A stretch of 64,000 nt of DNA from the NCBI GenBank assembly GCA_934087065.1, contig CAKOIS010000005.1, positions 2,789 to 66,788 on the forward strand, written 5' to 3'. The stretch comes from an uncultured Bacilli bacterium (lineage in GTDB: Bacteria > Bacillota_I > Bacilli_A > RF39 > UBA660). Position 1 is the first letter of the stretch. Each line of letters starts with the position of its first letter. Made by a program: the position numbers and the translations under genes. Shown here in pieces: positions 5,628 through 48,754 of this stretch. The notes under the pieces are model-generated. The model was given only the letters and a program-made list of their open reading frames with translations, made no database searches and was not told the DNA's origin.

Positions 5628-8600
5628 TACCTATTAAACCAAGTGATGCAATATGGACGGATGAACAATGGAATGCAATATATGATAAAGGACACAATAT
5701 AATAGTATCTGCGGGTGCTGGAAGTGGTAAAACTGCTGTTTTAAGTGAAAGAGTAATTGAAAACTTAAAAAGTGGAATGAGCATAAAAGAAGTATTGTTG
5801 CTTACATTCACTAAAGCAGCAAGCTTAGAAATGAAAACAAGAATTAGAAATAAAATTAAAAAGAACCCTAGTTTATCTAAAGAACTTTCATTGATAGATG
5901 AAGCATATATAACAACATTTGATAGTTTTGCATTATCAATTGTAAAAAAATATCACTATATACTAAACATAAGTCCAAACGTAAGCATTATTGATGAGCC
6001 AATAATAAGAATAAAAAAGAAAGAAATACTAACTAATATATTTGATAAGTATTATGAAAATAAAAATGAGAAATTTTTAAAACTTATAAGTGACTTTTGT
6101 ATAAAAGATGATAAAGAAATATTTGAAAGTATTTTGTCTATTTATTCTAAAATAGATTTAAAATATAACAAGAACGAATACTTAGATAACTATATAAATG
6201 AGTACTTTAATATTGATAGAATTAATAATGATATAAATGATTACGAAAAACTTTTAATGAGTAAATTTGAAGAATTAGATTATCTAATTGAAGATATGTC
6301 TTATTATACAGATAGTGACTATATAACTAACTTAAGGCTAAGTGTTAGTAACCTAATGAGTTCTAAAACATATGACGAAATAGTATCAAACTTAAGTGTT
6401 GAAATACCTAGACTACCCAAAGGAAGTACTGACGAAGTAAAAGAAAAGAAAGAACTTATTAATGATGTAATTAAAAATATAAAAAGTTTATGTTCTTATA
6501 AAAATAGAGAAGAAATAATGAGTAGTATTTTATCCACTAAAGAGTACAAAGAAGTAATTATTGACGTATTAAAAGAATTTGATAAATATGTAATGGCTTA
6601 TAAATATGAAAATGATATTTATGAGTTTACAGATATAGCTAACCTAGCAATAAAATTAGTTAAGGAAAACGTGAGTGTTAGAGAAGAACTAAAGAATTCC
6701 TTTAAAGAGATAATGATAGACGAGTATCAAGATACAAATGACTTACAAGAAATACTAATTAACATGATAAGTGATAATAATGTCTATATGGTTGGAGATA
6801 TAAAACAATCTATTTATAGATTTAGAAATGCAAACCCAGATATATTTAAAGAAAAATATAATAAGTATAGTAACCATATAGGTGGAGAGAAAATAGACTT
6901 AAATAAAAATTTCAGGTCAAGAGAAGAAGTACTTAATAATATTAATTTACTATTTAATAAAGTAATGGACGAAAGTATAGGTGGAGCCGATTATATTAAA
7001 AGCCATCAAATGATTTTTGGTAATAAAAGTTACATTAAAAAAGGAAAAACTCTACAAAACTATGACTTTGAATTATATAGTTATATGTATGATAAAAAGA
7101 GCGAATACTCTAAAGAAGAAATTGAAGCATTTATTATTGCAAAAGATATACTTAGTAAAGTAAAAAGTAATTATCAAATATTTGATAAAGACACAAGTGT
7201 ACTTAGAAACGCAGAATATAGTGACTTTGTAATACTAATGGATAGAACTACTAACTTTGACTTATATAAAAAGATATTCTTGTATTTAGGTATACCACTA
7301 GAATTATATAAAGATGAAACAATGAACGAGGACACTGATATAATTGTATTAAATAACTTAATAAAATTTACTATTAAACTTGATTCAGGAGTATATGACA
7401 AAGAACTTGAGTACTTGTTTACAAGTGTTATGAGAAGCTTCTTGTGTGAAAGTACTGATGAAGAAATATTTGATACAATTAAAAATAAGACAATACTAAG
7501 TAGTAACTTAGCTAATAAAGTAAAGAAGATTAAGTTAAATAATAAATCTAGTTATGAAATAATAAATGATTTAATTAATGAATTTGATTTTTATAATAAA
7601 CTTATTACAATAGGTAATGAAAGTGCTTCAAGCGTAAAAATAGAAAACATTTTATCTAATGCAAAAACCACAAGTGGTATAGGTTACGATATAAATAGTT
7701 TTAGTGACTACTTAGATAATGTTATTAAAGAAAAAATAGACATAAAATACACAATTCATAGTGGTGTAAGTAACTCGGTTAAAATAATGACTATTCATAA
7801 ATCAAAAGGACTAGAGTTCCCAATATGTTATTTTTCAGGACTTTATAAGCCATTTAATATAAGTGACATAAAAGAGAAGTTTACATATAGTAATAAATAT
7901 GGAATAATAACTCCATATTTTGATGAAGGGGTAGGAGAAACCATTTATAAAAACTTACTAAAAAATGATTACTTAAAAGAAGAAATTAGTGAAAAAATAA
8001 GACTATTTTATGTAGCCCTTACTAGAGCAAAAGAAAAAATGATTCTAGTAATGCCTTATGAAGAGATAGTAAATGGTAAAGAAAGTGATTTAGTAAGTAG
8101 TGTAGTAAGAAGTAAATATAAAAGTCTTTTAGATATAGTATCTAGTACTTTAGTAAGTTTAACTAAGTATGTTACAGTAATTGATTATAATAAATCAGGA
8201 ATTTCAAAAGACTATAGTTTACTTATTAAAAAAGACTTTAAAAGTGGAATAGAAAAAAGTAGTGAAGTATTAAATGTAAACGAGCTTTTAGTTGAAAATG
8301 AAACTTTAATAGATAAACATTACTCAAAAGAAAACAATAAACTAATTACAAATGACATAAAAAAGAATATTGAGTTTGGTAAATATGTTCATGAAGTTTT
8401 AGAATATTTTGACTTAAAAAAGAAAGATTATTCTTATATAAAAGATGAGTTTATCAAAAATAAAATCATATCTTTTAGTAATTTACCAATATTTGATAAT
8501 GTAAGTGAGGCTAATATCTTTCATGAATATGAGTTTGTTTACACATTAGATAATACTAAATATCATGGAATAATAGATTTAATGCTAGAATATCCTGATC

Positions 8601-12052: not shown

Positions 12053-14674
12053 ATGAACAAAATTAAAAAGATATTATTTACTTTAGTTTTATCTTTATTG
12101 TTTGTTGTTAATACTGATGCAATTATAAAAGAAGACCCTGCTAATTTTACTGAAGACACTTATATAATTGGTATAACTAAGTTTGATAAAAACATCACAG
12201 TAAATGCATCAATGGCTAATCAAGCTGGAATAGATTATGCTAGTTTTATGCAAAGTATCAATAACGATGATTTAACAAGTGATGTGTATTTTTATAGTAA
12301 ACTAACTGATGAGTGGTTTAAAATAAGTAAAAACACAAATGAATATAAATTGTTAAATGAAAATGAAAAAGAAGAATTAATAAATAATTTAAATATTTTC
12401 TATGTAAATAATGAAGAAAAAACTACAACTTTAGATTATAATGGAAATGTTTCTAAAATAAGTAATTCTAAAGTTAAGTTTGAAAATAATAAGTTTATTA
12501 TACCAGTAACTTTATTAAATTTTAATTTTACAACTATAGATGACATTACGCTTGATGTTGATTTAGCAAAAGATAAAGATGGTATTAATAACTATGGTGA
12601 ATATTATATTCCTTATATAGTAAGCTATTATGATGAAGAACAAAACTTAATTGGGACAATTAAAACTAACAAAGATGGTTCTTTAAATTTAAGTAATTTT
12701 ACTATTCCTACTAAAGATGGTTACAAGCATGAATTTGTTAATAATGAAGGAAATGTAGTAGACATCAACACTTTAGTAGTAAGTGATAACCTTACTAAAA
12801 TCTATGATAAATGGACAAAAGTTGGAAGTTTAATGGAAAACAATGTTAGTATATTTGATAAAGACAGTCTTACATTAAAATATACTGGCTTAATTGATAG
12901 AAGAGATAACTCTAACTATATATATGTAACAATAGTCGCACCTATAAACTTTGATACAACTAATACTTTAGTAAATGGTGAAAGTGTTAAATGGATAAGT
13001 GGCGTTAAAAATACTGCCGAAATCAAGCTTGATGTTAAAGACAAGTCTAGTCAAAAAATTACTGTTAAATGGGACGATATTGACACAACTACATTTACAG
13101 TAGATTTAAGTGAAAGCAAGTTTAGTTATCTTATCACTTATAAAGAAGGAAACATTACTAAAAATGTAGGATTTATAACAGAAGGCGAAAAACTAAGTAA
13201 TATTTATGAATATACTAAAAAAGGTAAAATATTTGTAGGACTAACTACTATTAAAAATGGTAGAGTAAAATTTGATACTAATACTCCTATTACAAAAGAT
13301 TATACATTCTATCCAATTTACATAACTCCAGTATTAAGTTACAATAATGAAGTAACTAAAGAAGTTGAATACGCTTTTGTAAATGGAGAAGAAAGCAATC
13401 AAATATTTAAACTAAATTATCAAAAAGTGACAAGTGGTAAATTTAAACTTGTTGTTGAATTTAACGATACTAATGCTGTATATGACGAAAATGATTATAT
13501 AAAAGCAAAAATTAATGATAAATGGGTAGACTTTAAGGATGGTGTTATATTTGACGTAAACGAAAAAGGTTATACCGAAATACCTTTCAAAGTCAAAATG
13601 ACTAATAACACATCTACTAGTTATAAGTATTCAATTTATTATAATGATAAACTAGTACTATCTAAAACTATAGTTAACGGTCTAACTAGTGAAGAAAACT
13701 TAACTTTAAGTATTGGGAAACACAAATTCACTAATACAAAAGCAAGTAAAATAATGAAATATGGAACAGCAGAAACTCCAGTAAAACTACTAAAAGATGT
13801 AACATTAACTGGTGTAGCCGGTATATCAGGAAATTCTTATATTGATTTAAATGGATTTACTTTAACAAGTGGAAAAAGTAACAGTATATTTGAATTTTCT
13901 ACAACTATTGCTACAAATGATAATAGTTTAAACATATATAATGGTAATCTAAATTTAGTAAGTACTAAAAAAGACACTTATGTTGTCAATGGTGGCAAAA
14001 AGTCTGGAAAAGGCAAGTTCACTTTAACAATGACTAATGTTGAAGTTACTTCAAATAACGAAACATTCTACATGGCTGGAACTAACAGTAAAATAGAATT
14101 AAATAATGTTACAGTTAATTCTAAAAATAATGCATTCTTTATTGAAGGAAAGAATCCTGTAGTTGTTATTAATGATAGTAAACTAATTACTGATCAAGTT
14201 GCAATTTATACCAATGGTAGTACATCAAGTGATACAAATATTACTTTAGATAATTCTGATATTGTATCAAAAAGTATGGGTATATATCAAGCTTCAAGTG
14301 GAGTGCTTACTATATCTAATAATTCTAGTGTAACTGGTACAACTGGTATAGGACTAAAAAGTGGACAACTTAATGTATTAAATTCAACTATCGTTGGTAA
14401 TGGTACTTCTGTTGAAACTCCACAAGTAGAAAATAGTGGTATATCTGATACAGGAGATGCTATCTACGTTGAAGTTAACAGTGGATACCAAAGTGTAACT
14501 AAAGAGAATAGTGATATTTCTATTAGTGTTACTAATAGTGAACTAACAAGTAAAGCTAATAATTCAATAAGAGTATTTAACCCTGAAGAAATAACTGGTA
14601 CAATAGTACTAGCAAATGACTACAACATATTCGCTGAAAACACAGAAGGAAAATTTTATACACTTAATAAATAG
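12053..14674 (+). CDS. large secreted protein (873 aa), N-terminal signal peptide, C-terminal beta-helix-like repeats
   Basis: Signal peptide 'LVLSLLFVVNTDA'. C-terminal third rich in N/S/T/G repeats typical of right-handed beta-helix / pectate-lyase-like folds. Confidence 0.55.
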   Translation: MNKIKKILFTLVLSLLFVVNTDAIIKEDPANFTEDTYIIGITKFDKNITVNASMANQAGIDYASFMQSINNDDLTSDVYFYSKLTDEWFKISKNTNEYKLLNENEKEELINNLNIFYVNNEEKTTTLDYNGNVSKISNSKVKFENNKFIIPVTLLNFNFTTIDDITLDVDLAKDKDGINNYGEYYIPYIVSYYDEEQNLIGTIKTNKDGSLNLSNFTIPTKDGYKHEFVNNEGNVVDINTLVVSDNLTKIYDKWTKVGSLMENNVSIFDKDSLTLKYTGLIDRRDNSNYIYVTIVAPINFDTTNTLVNGESVKWISGVKNTAEIKLDVKDKSSQKITVKWDDIDTTTFTVDLSESKFSYLITYKEGNITKNVGFITEGEKLSNIYEYTKKGKIFVGLTTIKNGRVKFDTNTPITKDYTFYPIYITPVLSYNNEVTKEVEYAFVNGEESNQIFKLNYQKVTSGKFKLVVEFNDTNAVYDENDYIKAKINDKWVDFKDGVIFDVNEKGYTEIPFKVKMTNNTSTSYKYSIYYNDKLVLSKTIVNGLTSEENLTLSIGKHKFTNTKASKIMKYGTAETPVKLLKDVTLTGVAGISGNSYIDLNGFTLTSGKSNSIFEFSTTIATNDNSLNIYNGNLNLVSTKKDTYVVNGGKKSGKGKFTLTMTNVEVTSNNETFYMAGTNSKIELNNVTVNSKNNAFFIEGKNPVVVINDSKLITDQVAIYTNGSTSSDTNITLDNSDIVSKSMGIYQASSGVLTISNNSSVTGTTGIGLKSGQLNVLNSTIVGNGTSVETPQVENSGISDTGDAIYVEVNSGYQSVTKENSDISISVTNSELTSKANNSIRVFNPEEITGTIVLANDYNIFAENTEGKFYTLNK

Positions 14675-14750: not shown

Positions 14751-15584
14751 ATGTTAGATAAAGAAGTGTTAGAGTTATTTTGTGAGCAAATGAATAATGC
14801 CAGCATCTTTAATAGAGTATTTATAGAAAAATTAACAAGTCTGTTAAAACAAAGTAAATACTTTGAAAATTTAAACCCTATACTATTTAAAAAAACAAAC
14901 TTTTTAACTGAAGCTGACACCTTTGATAATGAAATAACTATGCACCCAGAAATAATCAACGCAAGTTATCAAAACTCTTTAGATAAATATGGTATTCTTA
15001 ATGATACTTTATTTACAAGGAACATCTATAGAACTATTTCTCTACTACATGAACTTACTCATGTATATCAGTTTAACTTAGAAATGAACGAAATTAAAAA
15101 AGTATATCTAGAGTGTCTAAAAGTAAAAGAAGGATACGTTTTAATGAACAACAATCTAGATAAATTAATAGTCAAACTTCTTAACAAGCTAAATCTAAAA
15201 ACACAAAGTGAATTATATGTAGCTTTAAAGTCTTACGGTTTATACATGAAAAATCATGATATGTTTCCAATTGAAAAAATGGCAGATGGGTATGCTTATA
15301 AATATTTGATAGAAATATATCACATGCTAGGAAAGGAATACTTTAAAGATTTTGATAGTTTCTTAGACATAATGATTTATCATATTATAAAAGATTACTA
15401 CCAAGAAGGTGATTTAGTTAGTACACCATATAATAGATTTTTAACTTTAATTAAAAGACATGGATACACTTTTAAAGACATAAATATACAAAACATAAAT
15501 GCATACGATAGACTACTTATTGGAATGGAAGAAGATAAAAATACTATAAATAATATAATAAATACTAAAATATTAAGGAAATAA
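14751..15584 (+). CDS. hypothetical HExxH-motif protein, paralog B
   Basis: 'LLHELTHVYQF' and 'FPIEKMADGYAYKYL' match paralog A motifs. SD AGGGGG. Confidence 0.5.
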   Translation: MLDKEVLELFCEQMNNASIFNRVFIEKLTSLLKQSKYFENLNPILFKKTNFLTEADTFDNEITMHPEIINASYQNSLDKYGILNDTLFTRNIYRTISLLHELTHVYQFNLEMNEIKKVYLECLKVKEGYVLMNNNLDKLIVKLLNKLNLKTQSELYVALKSYGLYMKNHDMFPIEKMADGYAYKYLIEIYHMLGKEYFKDFDSFLDIMIYHIIKDYYQEGDLVSTPYNRFLTLIKRHGYTFKDINIQNINAYDRLLIGMEEDKNTINNIINTKILRK

Positions 15585-15828: not shown

Positions 15829-16386
15829 ATGTTTAATGTAAATGATATTAAAAATGGAATGACTATTAGTTATGAAGGTAATATATATCAAGTAGTTGAG
15901 TTTCAACATGTAAAACCAGGTAAAGGTAGTGCATTTGTCAAAACTAAATTAAAGAATTTAAGAACACAAACTACACAAGAAATTACTTTCAACGCTGGTA
16001 TTAAACTTGAAAAAGCAAATGTTGTAAAAAACGATTTAAGTTATTTATATAGTCAAGGAGACTCTTATGTATTTATGGATAATAATACTTATGATCAAAT
16101 TGAAATAAATAAGAGCAAGCTAGGCGATAATGCTAAATTCTTAAAAGAAGGATTAGTAGTTAATGTAATGAATTACAATGGAGAAATTGTTGGAGTAACT
16201 TTCCCAGATAAAATTAGCTATAAAGTTGTTGAAACTGAACAAGCAGTTAAAGGAAACACTACAAGTGGAGCTCAAAAAGATGCTACATTAGAAACAGGAT
16301 ATACTGTTAAAGTTCCTTTATTCATTGAAGCTGGAGAAGAAATAATTATTACTACTAGTGATGGTAAATATTCAAGTAGAGCATAA
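15829..16386 (+). CDS. efp: elongation factor P
   Basis: 185 aa. Conserved 'KPGKGSAFV' loop containing the modified Lys. Confidence 0.9.
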   Translation: MFNVNDIKNGMTISYEGNIYQVVEFQHVKPGKGSAFVKTKLKNLRTQTTQEITFNAGIKLEKANVVKNDLSYLYSQGDSYVFMDNNTYDQIEINKSKLGDNAKFLKEGLVVNVMNYNGEIVGVTFPDKISYKVVETEQAVKGNTTSGAQKDATLETGYTVKVPLFIEAGEEIIITTSDGKYSSRA

Positions 16387-16398
16387 AAGCTCTTTTTT
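16378..16398 (+). terminator. efp terminator
   Basis: agagc/gctct stem then T6. Confidence 0.5.
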
Positions 16399-16401
16399 GT
16401 G

Positions 16402-16430
16402 TTGAATTTTTATATAATTTATGTTATCAT
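16402..16430 (+). promoter_or_regulatory. promoter TTGAAT-17-TGtTATCAT for leader / paralog copy 1
   Basis: Same architecture and spacing relative to the conserved 'aaagatagg' box as at copies 2 and 3. Confidence 0.45.
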
Positions 16431-16440
16431 TTTAATGTAA

Positions 16441-16610
16441 TAAAGATAGGAGATAAACATATGAAAGATACATTTTTAGTACAAAGTAAACTACAAAATG
16501 GGGGGGGTTATTTAAGTAAAGTAAATAACTTAAGTTTTCATATGTCTAAATATAATGGATAGAATAAGTCTACCCATTTTTTGTTGTGTAAGAAAGAAGG
16601 AGTATGATTT
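16441..16610 (+). promoter_or_regulatory. conserved leader, copy 1: SD + leader ORF (16461-16562, 33 aa) containing G8 tract (16500-16507) + terminator hairpin (16555-16583) + SD of main gene
   Basis: Leader ORF MKDTFLVQSKLQNGGGYLSKVNNLSFHMSKYNG*. Its TAG stop lies in the 5' arm (atggatag) of the hairpin atggatag/ctacccat, which is followed by TTTTTT. Homologous leaders at 36215-36393 and 47098-47272. Confidence 0.55.
16500..16507 (+). repeat. poly-G homopolymer (G8) inside leader ORF
   Basis: Read directly from the sequence. G-runs of 8 or more are otherwise absent from this 30% GC window. Confidence 0.9.
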
Positions 16611-18257
16611 ATGAATAAGAAGAGTATAACAATATTAGTAGTGTGTTTAATAGTGACTGTGTTGTCAGTCAGTTTAGCATACTATAGTGCTAGAATAATA
16701 GGTGATGGGAAAAACGTAAGCGTGAATGCAAAAGAGCTTACAATAAACTTTGACAATAATAACGAAATAGCGAGTGGTATAATTGAACCAGGTTGGAGTA
16801 GTTCTAATACTTTTAGTGTTACTAATAAAAGTAAAACTAACTTTACATATGATATTGTATTAAAGAACTATAAAAATACTACTAAGACTAATGGATACCT
16901 AGTTTATAAAATAACTAGTACAAATGGTTACAATATGACTGAATATAAAGATATGCCAAAAGATGGAGATAATACATATGACCTAGTAATTGCTAGAGGC
17001 ATAACTATTGAACCAGGAAGTAGTAATAAACAAAGTTATACTTTAGAAATAAAATACCTAGATAGCACTGAAGACCAAAGTATAGATATGGGGTCAACTG
17101 TTACAGGTAGTTTATATATAGTAGAAAGTACAACAAACGAAAATAACCCATATACTAAAGGAACATTAGGTTATCAAATAATGGAAGATAACTCAAATAT
17201 TAAAACTAGAACAGATTTTAGTAAAACCTACACAGATGTAAATATTGGAACAATGTATAAAGCACAAGAAGAAAATACTGACGTTTATTATTTTGCAGGA
17301 GATGCAAGAAACAACTGGGTTAAATTTGGAACATGGAAGGAAGATAAAACCATAATAGTTGGATATTACGACACATCAGCTTTTCAGGGCAAACTTTATG
17401 ATACGTTAGAAGAATGTAATACGGCTAGTTCATATAATAAAAATTGTCACTCAGTTACATTGGCTAAAAAAGGAAATGCAATGTACTGGAGAATAATTCG
17501 TACAAATAATGATGGAAGCATAAGACTATTATACGCAGGGACTAATCCGTATGGTAATGAAGCATATGTAAATATAAGTGTATATAATTCTCCATATAAT
17601 AACCCTATGTATGTAGGCTATATGTATGGAACATTAGGCTCTTTGGAAAATAATAGACAAAACACAACAGATAGTTCGGTTAAATCAGCAATTGATAATT
17701 GGTATGTAAATAACATGACATCATATACAAAATATTTAAGCACAAGTGCAGTATATTGTAATGACCGTAGCATACCAAATTCAGACTATAACACTGATAA
17801 AACAGGTTTTAATTATAATTCAGTGTATAGGTTAAATACTAACAAAACTCCAACATATAATTGCGAAAGCGAATATGACGCTTTTAGTGTAGAAAATGCA
17901 AATGCTAAACTAACTTACCCAATAGCCTTAATGACAGCAGACGAAATTGCATATGCAGGTGGTTTACACAACACTCGTTCTGAAACGTGGGTATATAAAA
18001 GTGCTGTACTTAATTCTGACAATGAAAATATTATAAGTGCAACAGGAATTACAAGGTGGTGGACAATGAGCCCTGGAATTTGGGAAGGAACAATATCTAG
18101 AACATATTTTTTAAACACTGTAGCTTGGCCAGGACATTTAAGTACGCAATATATTAATTATGGATATGGTGTAAGACCAGTAATAAGTATAAATAGAAAT
18201 AACATATGGAAAAGTGGAGATGGAAGCGTAGAACATCCATATGAAATTAGTAATTGA
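16611..18257 (+). CDS. secreted paralog family member 1 (548 aa); SipW-cognate-like signal peptide, TasA/camelysin-like N-terminal region
   Basis: N-terminus 'MNKKSITILVVCLIVTVLSVSLAYYSARIIGDGKNVSV...IEPGWSSSNTFSV'. Conserved C-terminal block shared with copy 3 ('WRIIRTN.DGS.RLLY.GT', 'YPIALMTADE', 'VRP'). Confidence 0.6.
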   Translation: MNKKSITILVVCLIVTVLSVSLAYYSARIIGDGKNVSVNAKELTINFDNNNEIASGIIEPGWSSSNTFSVTNKSKTNFTYDIVLKNYKNTTKTNGYLVYKITSTNGYNMTEYKDMPKDGDNTYDLVIARGITIEPGSSNKQSYTLEIKYLDSTEDQSIDMGSTVTGSLYIVESTTNENNPYTKGTLGYQIMEDNSNIKTRTDFSKTYTDVNIGTMYKAQEENTDVYYFAGDARNNWVKFGTWKEDKTIIVGYYDTSAFQGKLYDTLEECNTASSYNKNCHSVTLAKKGNAMYWRIIRTNNDGSIRLLYAGTNPYGNEAYVNISVYNSPYNNPMYVGYMYGTLGSLENNRQNTTDSSVKSAIDNWYVNNMTSYTKYLSTSAVYCNDRSIPNSDYNTDKTGFNYNSVYRLNTNKTPTYNCESEYDAFSVENANAKLTYPIALMTADEIAYAGGLHNTRSETWVYKSAVLNSDNENIISATGITRWWTMSPGIWEGTISRTYFLNTVAWPGHLSTQYINYGYGVRPVISINRNNIWKSGDGSVEHPYEISN

Positions 18258-26785: not shown

Positions 26786-26935
26786 TATTTACAAAATTAA
26801 CTTTTTGTAGTAAAATACTATTCATGAGTTCGCCGTAGACCGTAGGTATACAAATAAATCCTACCGAGGAAGACTAATCTTTTAAGAAGTTTTCCTTGTG
26901 CGGAAAACTTTTATTAATATTATAAGGAGGAAAAA
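26786..26935 (+). promoter_or_regulatory. rplJ (L10) leader with stem-loops / attenuator
   Basis: 150-nt untranslated region between rplA and rplJ. Hairpins cgccgtagaccgtagg...cctaccgagg and gaagttttcc/ggaaaactt + TTTT. Matches position of the known L10 leader. Confidence 0.45.
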
Positions 26936-36182: not shown

Positions 36183-36212
36183 TTGACAAGGCTCACTAAA
36201 AAATGCTAAAAT
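36183..36212 (+). promoter_or_regulatory. promoter TTGACA-18-TGcTAAAAT for leader / paralog copy 2
   Basis: Sequence match to consensus. Confidence 0.5.
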
Positions 36213-36214
36213 TT

Positions 36215-36393
36215 AAGAGTAAAAAGATAGGAGAAGATATATATGGAATCTAACTCTTTAGTACAAAATGAAGTACAAATGGGGGGGGGTATTTAGTTTA
36301 GTAAATACCACTAGTTTTCATATACTTTTAATGAGATAGAATATTTTTCTATCTCTTTTTCGTGTCTTTAAAAAGAAGGGAGAGCATAAAATT
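36215..36393 (+). promoter_or_regulatory. conserved leader, copy 2: leader ORF 36243-36296 (MESNSLVQNEVQMGGGI*) with G9 tract 36281-36289; terminator 36333-36360
   Basis: Perfect 9-bp stem gagatagaa/ttctatctc then TTTTT. With G9 the leader ORF stops 37 nt upstream of the hairpin. Confidence 0.55.
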
Positions 36394-37689
36394 ATGCATA
36401 ACAAACAATTAACATTAGTTGTAGTAAGCCTTTTAGTAGTAGTACTAAGTGTATCACTAGCATGGTTTACAACACAAATATTGGGAAAGGGGAAAGACGT
36501 AAGTGTAAGTAGTGCTAACTTACAAATAATATTTACAGATAGTGACGGTGCTTTATCAGCAAATGATATAGAACCAGGATGGAGTGCAACAAAAACATTC
36601 ACTGTACAAAACAATAGTAAAGAAGAATACAAATACAATATTATTATAAAAGATTTGGTAAACACATTTGTAACAAACGGATACTTACAATACAAGATAA
36701 CTAGTACAAACGATGGATATAATATGACAGAGTATAAGGATATACCAAAATCTAGTACAGCTAAAGATATAATACTTGCTTATAGTGTATCTATACCAAA
36801 GGGAGAAACTCAAACATACACAATAGAATTTAAGTATGCAAATGACGAAAGCAAAGACCAAAGTGTAGATATGAATAAGAAACTGAGTGGAACTTTATTT
36901 ATAACAGAAGGAATAGAAGAACCAAAATCACTTGCAACATTAATACAAACAAATGCTATAAATGAAAATGGATATAGATATGAAGGAACAGACCCAAATA
37001 ACTATATACAAATGGAGAAGACTGATGGCACAACAGAAATATGGAGAATAATAGGGTTATTCCCAGATGGAGAAAATGGAGAAGATGTAATAAGAGTAAG
37101 AAAAGTAGAATATGAGAGTGCTCCTTATGACTCAAATGATACAAACCATTGGCCAAATACAACGCTATATACATATTTAAAAGATACATATTCATTAACA
37201 AATTATAAAAACACAGTAAACTATAAAATGTACTTAGGTGGTGCAAGTAGTATATCAAGTTATACATCACAAGACTTATATGATATGGAAAGAATGTTAA
37301 ATAGTAAAGGAACAGCAGGAAAAACATCACAAAATAGTTATTCTAGCACAACAACATTTACAGGAAGTGTAGGACTAATGTATCCAAGCGATTATGGGTG
37401 CGCTGTACTAGCAAGTGACTGTGCAAGAACAATCACGCCTGAAAAATATACTGAACCAGCAGCATGCCACGATAACAACTGGTTATTCCAAGGTTCAAAT
37501 ATTCGACAATGGTTAATAAGCCCAGGCGTCTCTTTTAATAATTATGCGTTCATTGTCCATGCTAATGGGTATGCCACTCACATGTACATCGTAACTGTTT
37601 CCGTCTCTTATAGCCCAGTTATGGCTCTAAAGTCCGATGTAATCGTAACAGGAAGTGGTACACAAAGTGACCCATATGTAATGAATTAA
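36394..37689 (+). CDS. secreted paralog family member 2 (431 aa)
   Basis: N-terminus 'MHNKQLTLVVVSLLVVVLSVSLAWFTTQILGKGKDVSV...IEPGWSATKTFTV', about 65% identical to copy 3 over the first ~175 aa. Divergent C-terminal half. Confidence 0.6.
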   Translation: MHNKQLTLVVVSLLVVVLSVSLAWFTTQILGKGKDVSVSSANLQIIFTDSDGALSANDIEPGWSATKTFTVQNNSKEEYKYNIIIKDLVNTFVTNGYLQYKITSTNDGYNMTEYKDIPKSSTAKDIILAYSVSIPKGETQTYTIEFKYANDESKDQSVDMNKKLSGTLFITEGIEEPKSLATLIQTNAINENGYRYEGTDPNNYIQMEKTDGTTEIWRIIGLFPDGENGEDVIRVRKVEYESAPYDSNDTNHWPNTTLYTYLKDTYSLTNYKNTVNYKMYLGGASSISSYTSQDLYDMERMLNSKGTAGKTSQNSYSSTTTFTGSVGLMYPSDYGCAVLASDCARTITPEKYTEPAACHDNNWLFQGSNIRQWLISPGVSFNNYAFIVHANGYATHMYIVTVSVSYSPVMALKSDVIVTGSGTQSDPYVMN

Positions 37690-47061: not shown

Positions 47062-47090
47062 TTGAAAAATAGTACTTTTTTTGATAAGAT
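47062..47090 (+). promoter_or_regulatory. promoter TTGAAA-17-TGaTAAGAT for leader / paralog copy 3
   Basis: Same spacing to the 'aaagatagg' box as copy 1. Confidence 0.45.
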
Positions 47091-47097
47091 TATCTTG

Positions 47098-47272
47098 TAA
47101 TAAAGATAGGAAGTGAAGTACATGAAAATTAACTCTTTGGTACAAAATAAAGTACAAAATGGGGGGGGGTTATTTAAATAGTATAAATAACTATAGTTTT
47201 TCATGTGCAATTAAATGGATAGAATAACTCTACCCATTTTTTCGTGTCTTAAAAAGAAAGGAGAACATTAAT
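47098..47272 (+). promoter_or_regulatory. conserved leader, copy 3: leader ORF 47122-47181 (MKINSLVQNKVQNGGGLFK*) with G9 tract 47161-47169; terminator 47215-47243
   Basis: Hairpin atggatag/ctacccat + T6 identical to copy 1. In the G8 frame the ORF would read ...GGGYLNSINNYSFSCAIKWIE*, similar to the copy-1 leader peptide, and would end inside the hairpin. Confidence 0.55.
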
Positions 47273-48754
47273 ATGCAAAAGAAAAAATTAACACTTGTAA
47301 TAGTAAGCTTACTTGTAGTAGTACTAAGTGTATCACTAGCTTACTTTACAGCACAAATAATAGGAAAGGGTAAAAATGTAAGTGTAACAAGTGCTAACTT
47401 ACAAATAGTATTTACAGATAGTGATGGAGCTTTAACAGAAACTGGTATAGAACCAGGGTGGCAAAAAACTAAAACTTTTACTATTAAAAATGATACTAAG
47501 ACAGAATACAAGTATAATATAGTAATAAAAGACTTGTTAAATACTTTTGTAACTAATGGATACTTACAATATAAGATAACTAGTACAAATAATGGATATA
47601 ATATGACTGAGTTTAAAGATATTCCAAAGTCAAGTGCACCTAAAGATAAAATACTAGCTTATAGTGTTAGTATTCCAGTAGGAGTAACACAAAGTTATAC
47701 TATTGAATTTAAGTATGCAAACGATGAAAGTGTAGACCAAAGTGATGATATGGGTAAGAAACTAAGTGGAACACTATTTATAACTGAAGGAACAGAAGAT
47801 CCAAACAAAACACTTTTAACTCAATTATTTGCAGACAAATCAACAGTATTAACAAGAACAGACTTTAGTACAGTATTAACAACAGATAATACAAAAACAT
47901 TATATACGGGAACAGAGAATGGAACAACAGTATACTATTTTGCAGGGAATGCAACAGATAACTGGGTAAAGTTTGGAAAGAATGCAAGTAATGAAGACTT
48001 ATACTGGAGAATAATAAGAACAAACTCAGATGGTAGTGTAAGACTTTTATACCATGGAACAAGTACAACAGCAACAGACGCATATATAGGGACATCAGCA
48101 TTTAATAGTAGTAATAATGATATAGCATATGTAAGCTATATGTATGGAAATTTAGGAAGTGTTGCAAATGCTAGAGAAAATACAACTAACAGTACAATAA
48201 AAACAATAATAGATAACTGGTATAAAGATAATTTGAATACAAATTATGGTAAATACCTAAGTACAACAGCAGTATACTGTAACGATAGAAGTACATCAGA
48301 TAATGCATCCTTTGGAGCACGTACAAGACTACAAACAAATAAAACACCAACATATGACTGTTCAGTAGCAGAAGACAAATTCACAGTAGACACAAGTACA
48401 GGAAATGGGAAACTAACATACCCAATAGCATTAATGACAGCAGACGAAGTAAGTTTTGCAGGTGGAGTATGGATAGTAAATGCACCTACATGGTATTATA
48501 AAAATAGTGCAAACGAAAGCTCTACAGACTCAACCTGGTGGTGGTTGTTGTCTCCTCGCGGTTGGTATGACAGCGTCGCTTACGTGTTCTACGTGTCCGG
48601 TTCGTCCAAACCTGGCTACTTGTACGACAACAGCGTCAACTACACCACCCGTGTGCGTCCAGCCCTATCACTAAAATCTTGTGTTAAATATGCAAATGGA
48701 GATGGCTCAGCAAGCGCACCATACACAATAAAAGAAACTTCAAGTGGGTGCTAA
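47273..48754 (+). CDS. secreted paralog family member 3 (493 aa)
   Basis: N-terminus 'MQKKKLTLVIVSLLVVVLSVSLAYFTAQIIGKGKNVSV'. Central/C-terminal block homologous to copy 1. GC3-rich patch at ~48553-48666. Confidence 0.6.
   Translation: MQKKKLTLVIVSLLVVVLSVSLAYFTAQIIGKGKNVSVTSANLQIVFTDSDGALTETGIEPGWQKTKTFTIKNDTKTEYKYNIVIKDLLNTFVTNGYLQYKITSTNNGYNMTEFKDIPKSSAPKDKILAYSVSIPVGVTQSYTIEFKYANDESVDQSDDMGKKLSGTLFITEGTEDPNKTLLTQLFADKSTVLTRTDFSTVLTTDNTKTLYTGTENGTTVYYFAGNATDNWVKFGKNASNEDLYWRIIRTNSDGSVRLLYHGTSTTATDAYIGTSAFNSSNNDIAYVSYMYGNLGSVANARENTTNSTIKTIIDNWYKDNLNTNYGKYLSTTAVYCNDRSTSDNASFGARTRLQTNKTPTYDCSVAEDKFTVDTSTGNGKLTYPIALMTADEVSFAGGVWIVNAPTWYYKNSANESSTDSTWWWLLSPRGWYDSVAYVFYVSGSSKPGYLYDNSVNYTTRVRPALSLKSCVKYANGDGSASAPYTIKETSSGC

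Follow-up and report, generated by a model that had tools for sequence, protein, structure and literature searches.

A length-variable poly-G tract in a repeated leader open reading frame: a candidate phase-variable attenuator of secreted-protein genes in uncultured gut Bacilli

The DNA analysed here, referred to as the window, is a 64-kb stretch (29% G+C) of contig CAKOIS010000005.1 from an uncultured Bacilli bacterium; coordinates refer to this window. Upstream of a gene for a predicted secreted protein (paralog 1) it carries a leader of about 175 nt, in which a poly-G tract lies inside a short open reading frame (ORF) that ends in a terminator-like hairpin. Comparison with related leaders suggests that this is probably a slippage-driven, phase-variable leader-peptide transcription attenuator, that is, a terminator switch in which tract length would decide whether a ribosome reaches the hairpin. 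The preliminary description of this DNA had dealt with a single locus, copy 1, and was correct about it, but the leader is not unique: at least three copies are present in the window and hundreds in gut metagenomes. Copies 2 and 3 occupy positions 36183-36393 and 47062-47272, and both have a tract of G9.

The features of copy 1 are as follows.

16402-16430 (+): leader promoter, TTGAAT-17-TATCAT with an upstream TG; its position is shared by the other two copies and by related loci
16448-16452 (+): Shine-Dalgarno (SD) sequence of the leader ORF, AGGAG, with an 8-nt spacer to the ATG
16457-16466 (+): 5' strand of pairing P0, the start-codon region of the leader ORF, ACATATGAAA
16461-16562 (+): leader ORF, 33 codons at G8, predicted ON
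16500-16507 (+): poly-G tract, G8, the putative slippage site, read GGG GGG GGT as Gly-Gly-Gly
16508-16528 (+): hairpin P1, TTATTTA / TAAATAA, directly 3' of the tract
16535-16545 (+): 3' strand of P0, the 'box' TTTTCATATGT, complementary to the leader start region
16554-16582 (+): terminator-like hairpin, AATGGATAG (16554-16562) / CTACCCATT (16570-16578), followed by T6
16596-18257 (+): SD of the main gene (16596-16602) and the paralog 1 gene (16611-18257, 548 aa)

The elements of the earlier account of this locus were all confirmed in position. The promoter was found where it had been placed, as were the SD-preceded leader ORF of 33 codons and, within it, the G8 run read as three glycines. 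The leader TAG stop (16560-16562) makes up the final three bases of the hairpin 5' arm, in agreement with the claim that it lies inside that arm, and the main ATG at 16611 is 28 nt past the end of the T run (16582), the distance that had been given. This 28-nt gap leaves no room for a further promoter past the hairpin. The position of the hairpin and its T6 also stood, but its arms, which had been presented as a terminator stem, are not perfectly complementary, since they contain an A.C mismatch. Both OFF-frame stops of copy 1 fall within P1.

The corresponding features of the other two copies are given below.

36183-36212 (+): copy 2 leader promoter, TTGACA-18-TAAAAT, 11/12 matches, with an upstream TG
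36243-36296 (+): copy 2 leader ORF at G9, 17 codons, predicted OFF
36281-36289 (+): copy 2 poly-G tract, G9
36333-36360 (+): copy 2 terminator, a perfect 9-bp stem GAGATAGAA / TTCTATCTC with T5, called by the terminator scanner; predicted folding free energy -11.7 kcal/mol
36394-37689 (+): paralog 2 gene, 431 aa
47062-47090 (+): copy 3 leader promoter, TTGAAA-17-TAAGAT, with an upstream TG
47122-47181 (+): copy 3 leader ORF at G9, 19 codons, predicted OFF
47161-47169 (+): copy 3 poly-G tract, G9
47213-47242 (+): copy 3 terminator-like hairpin, AAATGGATAG / CTACCCATTT, with an A.C mismatch and a T run; predicted folding free energy -7.7 kcal/mol
47273-48754 (+): paralog 3 gene, 493 aa, with a weak C-terminal match to DUF6273

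The three leaders could be aligned end to end and share one order of elements: promoter, the SD region AAAGATAGGAG, which precedes the leader ATG and is conserved across leader copies, ATG, tract, P1, the box TTTTCAT(A/G)TG, hairpin with T run, and the SD and ATG of the main gene. The tract has common flanks in all three copies (...GTACAAA(A)T-Gn-T(T)ATTTA...). Just three runs of six or more G were present in the whole 64-kb window (G8 at 16500, G9 at 36281 and G9 at 47161); all of them lie in this leader, each about 100 nt upstream of one of the paralogous signal-peptide genes. In 1.1 Mb of related DNA, 95 of the 99 G or C runs of seven or more among the matches listed were followed by the hairpin motif. 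Two further runs abut stretches of N in a leader context, which brings the number located in this leader to at least 97 of 99, and one more (L092) probably belongs to a leader with a variant hairpin. The occurrence of poly-G in the leader is far beyond chance.

Simulation of tract-length changes revealed the same frame logic in each copy. In copy 1 the ORF has 33 codons at G8 and its stop ends at 16562, in the 5' arm; at G6, G7, G9 or G10 translation would stop at 16515 or 16519. The copy 2 ORF stops at G9 with its last base at 36296, and G8 or G11 would carry it to the TAG at 36337-36339 in the 5' arm. Similarly, the stop of copy 3 at G9 ends at 47181, and at G8 or G11 the ORF would reach a TAA at 47225-47227 in the hairpin loop. 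Exactly one length class (modulo 3) took the SD-preceded ORF to the hairpin in 91 of the 92 unique leaders among the matches listed. Stop positions were counted from a GATAG anchor in the 86 listed leaders that had an uninterrupted tract of at least G7. The long-frame stops fell at +2 (TAG at the end of the 5' arm; 20 leaders), at +7 (TAA or TGA in the loop; 56 leaders) and at +31 (past the T run; 10 leaders); in the other two length classes the stop was 29-51 nt short of the hairpin and, with a single exception, at least 32 nt short of it. With respect to tract state, 38 of these 86 leaders were at the ON length, 23 at one G more and 25 at one G fewer.

The open frame is also maintained in the sequence that follows the tract. 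Exactly one stop-free frame to the hairpin was found in 56 of the 57 unique post-tract segments among the matches listed; when the segments were shuffled by mononucleotide, at least one open frame was found in just 45%. The open frame was kept in all eight sequence clusters (~80% identity), including variants that differ in length modulo 3. Across the copies, the near-invariant nucleotides of the box and the 5' arm were read in all three frames, and indels shift the leader frame between close relatives. Because the same conserved nucleotides are read in three frames and indels shift the frame, the amino-acid sequence of the leader peptide is, on these comparisons, not what is conserved.

The direction of the switch was suggested by leaders in which the tract has degenerated. 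Decayed tracts include GGGGTGGGG, GGGGTATGG, AGGAGGGG, GAGGAGGA, ATGAGGC and GGAGGAA, together with a clean deletion in L023. Among the matches listed, the long frame was found by script in 15 of 16 such 'locked' leaders and by hand in L102, with stops at -2 to +43; only L114 was fixed in the short frame. After near-duplicates had been collapsed, about 12 of 13 independent degenerations were long-frame (binomial P ~2e-5 against the 1/3 expected). Since tract-decayed leaders are nearly all long-frame, and a gene locked OFF would be useless, we infer that the long frame is the expressed state, and the earlier assignment of G8 in copy 1 to the ON state is consistent with this comparison. Paralog 1 (G8) is accordingly predicted to be ON and paralogs 2 and 3 (G9) to be OFF, each a single deletion from ON.

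Two kinds of tract-less leader have features of their own. In L023 (1304-1426) a natural deletion has removed the segment comprising the pre-tract region, the tract and the 5' part of P1; the start codon, box and terminator are kept, and the leader ORF is 17 codons long and ends at the hairpin base. L030 (- strand, leader 6910-7071) has a locked GGAGGAA leader in the long frame, as similarly do L078, L111 and L141. The leader of the L030 type precedes a gene for an 80-aa helix-turn-helix (HTH) protein (HTH_3), followed by two paralogs of the secreted family (817 and 494 aa).

The length of the tract varies between otherwise identical leaders. Where groups were defined by identical flanks (30 nt before the tract and about 50 nt after it), the tract differed (G8-G10) in 9 of the 15 groups among the matches listed. 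Four ortholog pairs differ by one G, and their flanks, compared over 700-1200 nt, have 0-1 substitutions and are otherwise free of indels: L031/L135 (G8/G9), L041/L061 (G10/G9), L113/L127 (G9/G8) and L079/L133 (G8/G9). At the orthologous locus downstream of efp in another strain, where the protein is 98% identical, the tract is G9 and the leader ORF is shortened to 19 codons; G8 was found at the copy 1 locus in two further contigs, one of which may be the source of the window itself. Slipped-strand mispairing would account for these changes in length. The tract-only differences between identical orthologs support the earlier proposal that a slippage-prone tract in the leader ORF sets how far the ribosome travels, and its further claim that tract length decides this reach agrees with the single length class entering or passing through the hairpin and with the 19-codon ORF of the G9 ortholog.

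Assembly breaks were also recorded at these sites. In a metagenome-assembled genome (MAG) labelled UBA11492, runs of N begin exactly at G8 tracts (L008 1137-1144; L024 1109-1116 and 1323-1330), and contigs of related genomes often end in the leader or the 5' end of the gene (L006, L007, L009, L014, L015, L017 and L020). These contig breaks and N runs suggest assembly breakage at the repeated cassette or at poly-G, although some of the N stretches may be masking.

Metagenome contigs were scanned with a pattern for the terminator alone (GATAGAATNNNTCTACCCATTTT), and the sample was hence blind to tract length. The scan gave at least 120 contig stretches which, with the loci already fetched, amounted to at least 133 leader instances. 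Among those listed, the tract was G9 in 52 instances, G8 in 26, G10 in 16 and G12 in one; 10 instances had G5 or G6, mostly interrupted (e.g. GGGGG(G)AGGG), and 28 were without a run of five or more G, eight of them being cut by a contig end. The proteins were found on human-gut metagenome contigs, including Hadza samples, and relatives were present in MAGs labelled Clostridium sp. CAG:628, Bacillota UBA11492 and 'uncultured Bacilli'. A distinct 'type B' leader was represented by L011, L025 and about 50 metagenome copies among the matches listed. Its ORF is longer, with about 22 codons before the tract, and starts MTNN(Y/F)VNKLSY...; the frame logic is unchanged. In L064 (38-60) the T run of the terminator is expanded to about 14 T, a second homopolymer that may also be unstable in length.

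The hairpin and a run of T5-T7 were present in all copies. The predicted folding free energy in copy 1 is -6.8 kcal/mol, compared with -7.4 kcal/mol for the bona fide efp terminator just upstream. The A.C mismatch was found in copies 1 and 3 and in most metagenome copies, and a consensus terminator scanner misses copies 1 and 3. Copy 2 has compensatory changes on both arms (GAGATAGAA/TTCTATCTC, compared with the common TGGATAG/CTACCCA), and because these changes give a perfect 9-bp stem followed by T5, the terminator looks real; transcripts would be expected to end at it. The mismatch position is A-U in copy 2, G.U in L092 and A.C in most copies. Terminator covariation is limited, since the retrieval pattern fixed the common arms. 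When all fetched loci were searched with nhmmer for other forms of the terminator, only copy 2, the degenerate L095 and a short antisense match in L037 to the near-palindromic hairpin were obtained, and copy 2 and L092 are thus the sole basis of the covariation. Even in copy 2, whose 3' arm has changed, the 5'-arm sequence GATAGAAT is retained.

Further pairings were predicted in the leader RNA. In P0, the leader start ([N4]ATGAAAA) is complementary to the box (TTTTCAT[N4]); 95.5% of cells pair in a 44-sequence alignment, compared with 27-57% in slid controls, and two pairs change on both sides (C-G 37 / U-A 6 and G-C 21 / A-U 5). This alignment (A3) misaligns the copy 2 terminator columns, so that its counts for helix 2 there understate the pairing. 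The arms of P1 fall in different alignment columns for each leader type, and P1 was folded type by type instead; a hairpin at the P1 position is kept, with different sequence, in leader types C and L2. When type B leaders were folded in this way a convincing P0 or P1 was not found, and the type B box TTTTTTGCATGAAAT is not complementary to the type B start codon. A pairing is also possible between AAAAUGGG, at the 5' edge of the tract, and CCCAUUUU, in the terminator 3' arm and U run. For copy 1 its predicted free energy is -10.7 kcal/mol, compared with -5.5 kcal/mol for the terminator arms; in copy 2 the pairing is not conserved (-6.7 against -11.4 kcal/mol). The C left unpaired by the conserved A.C mismatch could pair with a G at the tract 5' edge.

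No match to the leader was obtained in Rfam 15 at the gathering threshold, and region 16380-16640 searched at E ≤10 gave only chance-level matches (E >4). The sole gathering-level Rfam match in the window was a ribosomal protein L10 leader (RF00557, 48.8 bits) at 26815-26924 (+), upstream of rplJ/rplL-rpoB-rpoC. All three leaders also contain a promoter-like pair consisting of TTTTCA or TTCATA, 16-17 nt and TAGAAT in the hairpin 5' arm (16537-16565, 36315-36342 and 47198-47225, all +); its score is at chance level and its position is conserved.

The mechanism that we consider probable would operate as follows. A sigma-70-type promoter would start a leader RNA of about 175 nt, with an SD and a short ORF holding G8-G10 at its 5' end. 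Slipped-strand mispairing during replication would alter the tract by plus or minus one G. In one length class (modulo 3) the ORF would stay open for some 17-20 codons more, until a stop in the 5' arm (TAG), in the loop (TAA or TGA) or just past the terminator T run. In this ON state a ribosome trailing RNA polymerase would cover the hairpin and block the terminator, allowing read-through into the secreted-protein gene; we infer that ribosome and polymerase are coupled in the leader. In the other two classes, the OFF state, the ribosome would meet a stop 2-6 codons past the tract, the hairpin would form and most transcripts would end there. With several copies in a genome, each switching independently of the others, the expressed members of a surface or secreted protein family would vary combinatorially.

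A precedent for such a switch has been described in Streptococcus gallolyticus, contrary to the preliminary description, which had matched the arrangement to no described mechanism. There, slippage alters the number of GCAGA repeats inside the ORF of a leader peptide (Danne et al. 2014, PMC3894217). At pil1, translation of a short peptide ends 39 bp ahead of a stem-loop terminator and expression is low; translation of a long one ends within or after the hairpin, where the ribosome blocks its folding and expression is high. This was proven with start-codon, triple-stop and terminator-deletion mutants, and pil3 works likewise (PMC3894217). A full-text literature search found no organism besides S. 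gallolyticus with slippage-coupled leader-peptide attenuation. The two systems have in common a slippage repeat in a leader ORF and a stem-loop terminator before the structural genes, with repeat number placing the stop upstream of the hairpin (28-39 nt or more, low) or within or after it (high). Both belong to gut Firmicutes, have surface structures as targets (here predicted surface or secreted proteins) and occupy more than one locus per genome.

The differences from S. gallolyticus are several, and there is no sequence similarity between the two leaders. The repeat is a G8-G10 mononucleotide tract here and some 13-23 GCAGA units in S. gallolyticus. One of three frames would be ON here, whereas in S. 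gallolyticus both out-of-frame classes give long peptides. Unlike the S. gallolyticus leader, the present one is a dispersed, conserved cassette of about 175 nt, of which the 64-kb window has at least three copies and the metagenome sample at least 133, and it serves a large paralogous family, at some loci an HTH_3 gene and two paralogs. The P0 and P1 pairings are additional to the S. gallolyticus design. The hairpin is weaker, at about -7 to -12 kcal/mol compared with the -28 reported for S. gallolyticus pil3, and the S. gallolyticus mechanism was proven by mutants, whereas the present one is read from sequence. What is new here relative to S. gallolyticus is the homopolymer tract, the predicted one-in-three ON rule, the dispersed multi-copy cassette and the additional predicted RNA pairings.

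Several alternative explanations were weighed. Most of the probability left by the proposed attenuator goes to the case, in itself unlikely, that translation of the leader matters and the read-out is something other than intrinsic termination. Leader-ORF length would then control the gene by blocking Rho loading, protecting the mRNA from RNase or remodelling a structure that keeps translation of the main gene low, either P0 or a pairing between the purine-rich SD region and the 3' arm of the hairpin. What the frame logic and the bias of locked leaders to the long frame show is only that translation to the hairpin matters; moreover, in the minimum free energy (MFE) fold of copy 1 the hairpin is absent, and its pyrimidine-rich 3' arm and the U run are paired with the SD region of the main gene. 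P0 would occlude the start codon of the leader ORF, and the commonest hairpin is weak. On the other hand, 5-7 T directly after a hairpin are the signature of an intrinsic terminator, the perfect stem of copy 2 is maintained by compensatory changes, the proven S. gallolyticus case is one of intrinsic termination, and MFE folds are unreliable for AU-rich RNA. It is less probable again that the tract acts as an RNA element and not through frame, as the target of a C/U-rich small RNA (sRNA) in the manner of Helicobacter pylori tlpB/RepG or through the antiterminator pairing AAAAUGGG/CCCAUUUU. The copy 1 duplex of tract edge and 3' arm is stronger than that of the terminator arms (-10.7 against -5.5 kcal/mol), the C of the conserved mismatch would pair with a tract G, and A(A/T)ATGGG precedes the tract in most leaders. 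However, a change within G8-G10 would barely alter such pairing, which is not conserved in copy 2 (-6.7 against -11.4 kcal/mol); the 64-kb window has no C run of five or more, the tract sits inside an SD-preceded ORF, the leader matches no Rfam family, and maintenance of the open frame and the locked-long bias would be left unexplained.

Artefacts of homopolymer sequencing or assembly could have produced the length differences, in which case the leader would be a fixed attenuator or leader peptide without stochastic switching. Every length is a consensus from short-read metagenome assemblies, contigs frequently break at the leader, and N runs, possibly masked stretches rather than true gaps, adjoin G8 in one MAG. 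Independent assemblies nevertheless concur on G8 in copy 1 and on G9 in copies 2 and 3, about 3.4 kb of identical flanks rich in A/T homopolymers show no other indel, and lengths cluster at the ON length plus or minus one. Tracts of G8-G10 at one leader position in a 29% G+C genome, lost only toward the long frame, are the footprint expected of a contingency locus, and we regard the artefact explanation as improbable. Little weight was given to an internal promoter (box TTTTCA, 16-17 nt, TAGAAT in the 5' arm) driving the gene, with the tract as a spacing or UP-like element. Promoter-like matches do lie at the same place in all three copies, and both hexamer regions are near-invariant, but the 9/12 score is as frequent in shuffled AT-rich sequence, by eye the spacing from box to TAGAAT varies by leader type and type B has no -35 at usable spacing, and a far better promoter (11/12 in copy 2) lies upstream of the leader; ORF conservation and the locked-long bias would again have no explanation. 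Just as slight is the chance that the small ORF encodes a functional secreted peptide that the tract phase-varies. Its N-terminus, M K x N S L V Q N K V Q N G G G, loosely resembles a double-glycine leader by eye, but the post-tract part is read in three frames across copies with variable end points, its frame is shifted by indels between close relatives, and the pre-tract part is wholly different in type C leaders. A single frameshifted gene and a promoter-spacer tract were also considered and rejected, as was a G-quadruplex, which one G run cannot form.

Some observations weigh against the proposed attenuator. The case for it is built from assembled sequence, and the tract lengths are assembly consensus calls, poly-G being error-prone on Illumina. 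The ON length accounts for only 44% of uninterrupted tracts, a proportion that fits a switch without proving one. The commonest hairpin, with its conserved A.C mismatch, is weak (about -7 kcal/mol) and is passed over by a simple terminator scan. Conservation of the 5'-arm GATAGAAT and of the box TTTTCAT exceeds what a hairpin alone would need, and the two score as a promoter-like pair; the conserved pairings P0 and P1 fall outside the model. Bacillus subtilis RNA polymerase is reported to outrun ribosomes, which would weaken attenuation that depends on coupling.

A broader reading, which we put forward tentatively and hold to be rather doubtful, gives the RNA pairings a part in the switch. The leader would be a dispersed 'phasome' element with functional P0, P1 and antiterminator parts, and the main antigenic-variation system of the lineage. 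Once the box had been transcribed, P0 would shut the leader start codon, so that only the pioneer ribosome would count; P1 and the U-rich box would pause RNA polymerase and synchronise it with that ribosome. AAAAUGGG would serve as the antiterminator strand for CCCAUUUU, masked in OFF frames by the ribosome that stops just past the tract and exposed in ON, and such a role of the tract edge would explain the conserved A.C mismatch. If true, this would mean sharp, independent switching of many paralogous surface proteins and, at some loci, of an HTH regulator operon.

The proteins downstream of the leader were compared with known families. Paralog 1 has an N-terminal hydrophobic signal or transmembrane helix followed by a beta-rich domain; paralogs 2 and 3, which are 33-50% identical to it, have a similar signal or transmembrane N-terminus. 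The family of paralog 1 numbers at least 7800 database entries, and virtually all of them lack annotation. Searches of the paralogs against Pfam, NCBIfam and PDB sequences returned nothing save the weak DUF6273 match in paralog 3. An AlphaFold 2 (AF2) model of paralog 1 residues 1-185 was of medium confidence (pLDDT 62) and gave only generic beta-sandwich matches, and the 'TasA-like' label applied earlier to paralog 1 received no confirmation from these searches or from the model. It is reasonable to regard the paralogs as putative secreted or surface proteins.

One relative of paralog 1, P0096 (813 aa, 66% identical; loci L148-L157), which occurs on 20 contigs, is encoded by a gene without the poly-G leader. 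An HTH_3 regulator gene is transcribed divergently upstream of it, and the upstream sequence did not differ among 10 samples. Upstream of rpmG-efp in the window are two genes whose products had no Pfam match.

12053-14674 (+): 873-aa protein with a signal-peptide-like N-terminus
14751-15584 (+): 277-aa protein

The leader also resembles other regulatory systems in part. In the homopolymeric contingency loci of Neisseria, Campylobacter, Haemophilus and Mycoplasma, the tract is usually in the structural ORF or in a promoter spacer. These loci share with the present one a G/C tract of 8-10 nt, polymorphism of plus or minus one and an exported-protein multigene family, but the tract here belongs to an upstream ORF distinct from the structural gene, and its expected effect is on transcription elongation. 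In the Escherichia coli pyrBI leader, which works without an antiterminator, and in the trp/his leaders, a ribosome close behind RNA polymerase prevents or redirects terminator folding, with UTP or charged tRNA, for example, as the physiological signal. In the trp/his type the position of the ribosome selects between a terminator and an antiterminator that exclude each other; the candidate for the latter here is the tract-edge pairing of copy 1, which is not conserved in copy 2. The role proposed here for the ribosome is alike, whereas the input would be a heritable, reversible frameshift. A length-variable tract modulates downstream expression in the G-repeat of the H. pylori tlpB 5' untranslated region (UTR), the target of the sRNA RepG, and in the poly-G of the Moraxella catarrhalis uspA1 5'-UTR; those tracts are outside a translated ORF and have no terminator read-out, whereas the frame logic and locked-long bias indicate that the present tract would act through translation. 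In Clostridioides difficile, phase variation of the surface protein CwpV involves an intrinsic terminator in the cwpV leader, switched by site-specific inversion. The terminator read-out is alike, but cwpV uses DNA inversion, not slippage, and is without a leader peptide.

If the proposed attenuator is correct, this would be a second, unrelated instance of slippage combined with leader-peptide attenuation, which would make the combination a general, convergently evolved design. The present instance would be homopolymer-based and widespread, extending across an exported-protein family in uncultured human-gut bacteria. The length of the tract modulo 3, relative to the leader start, would allow the ON or OFF state to be predicted from metagenome sequence, and a poly-G run in apparently 'intergenic' DNA may, as a caution, be frame-sensitive. 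More than 7800 unannotated gut proteins would then be likely surface antigens, exposed to host or phage and controlled in a diversifying, bet-hedging manner.

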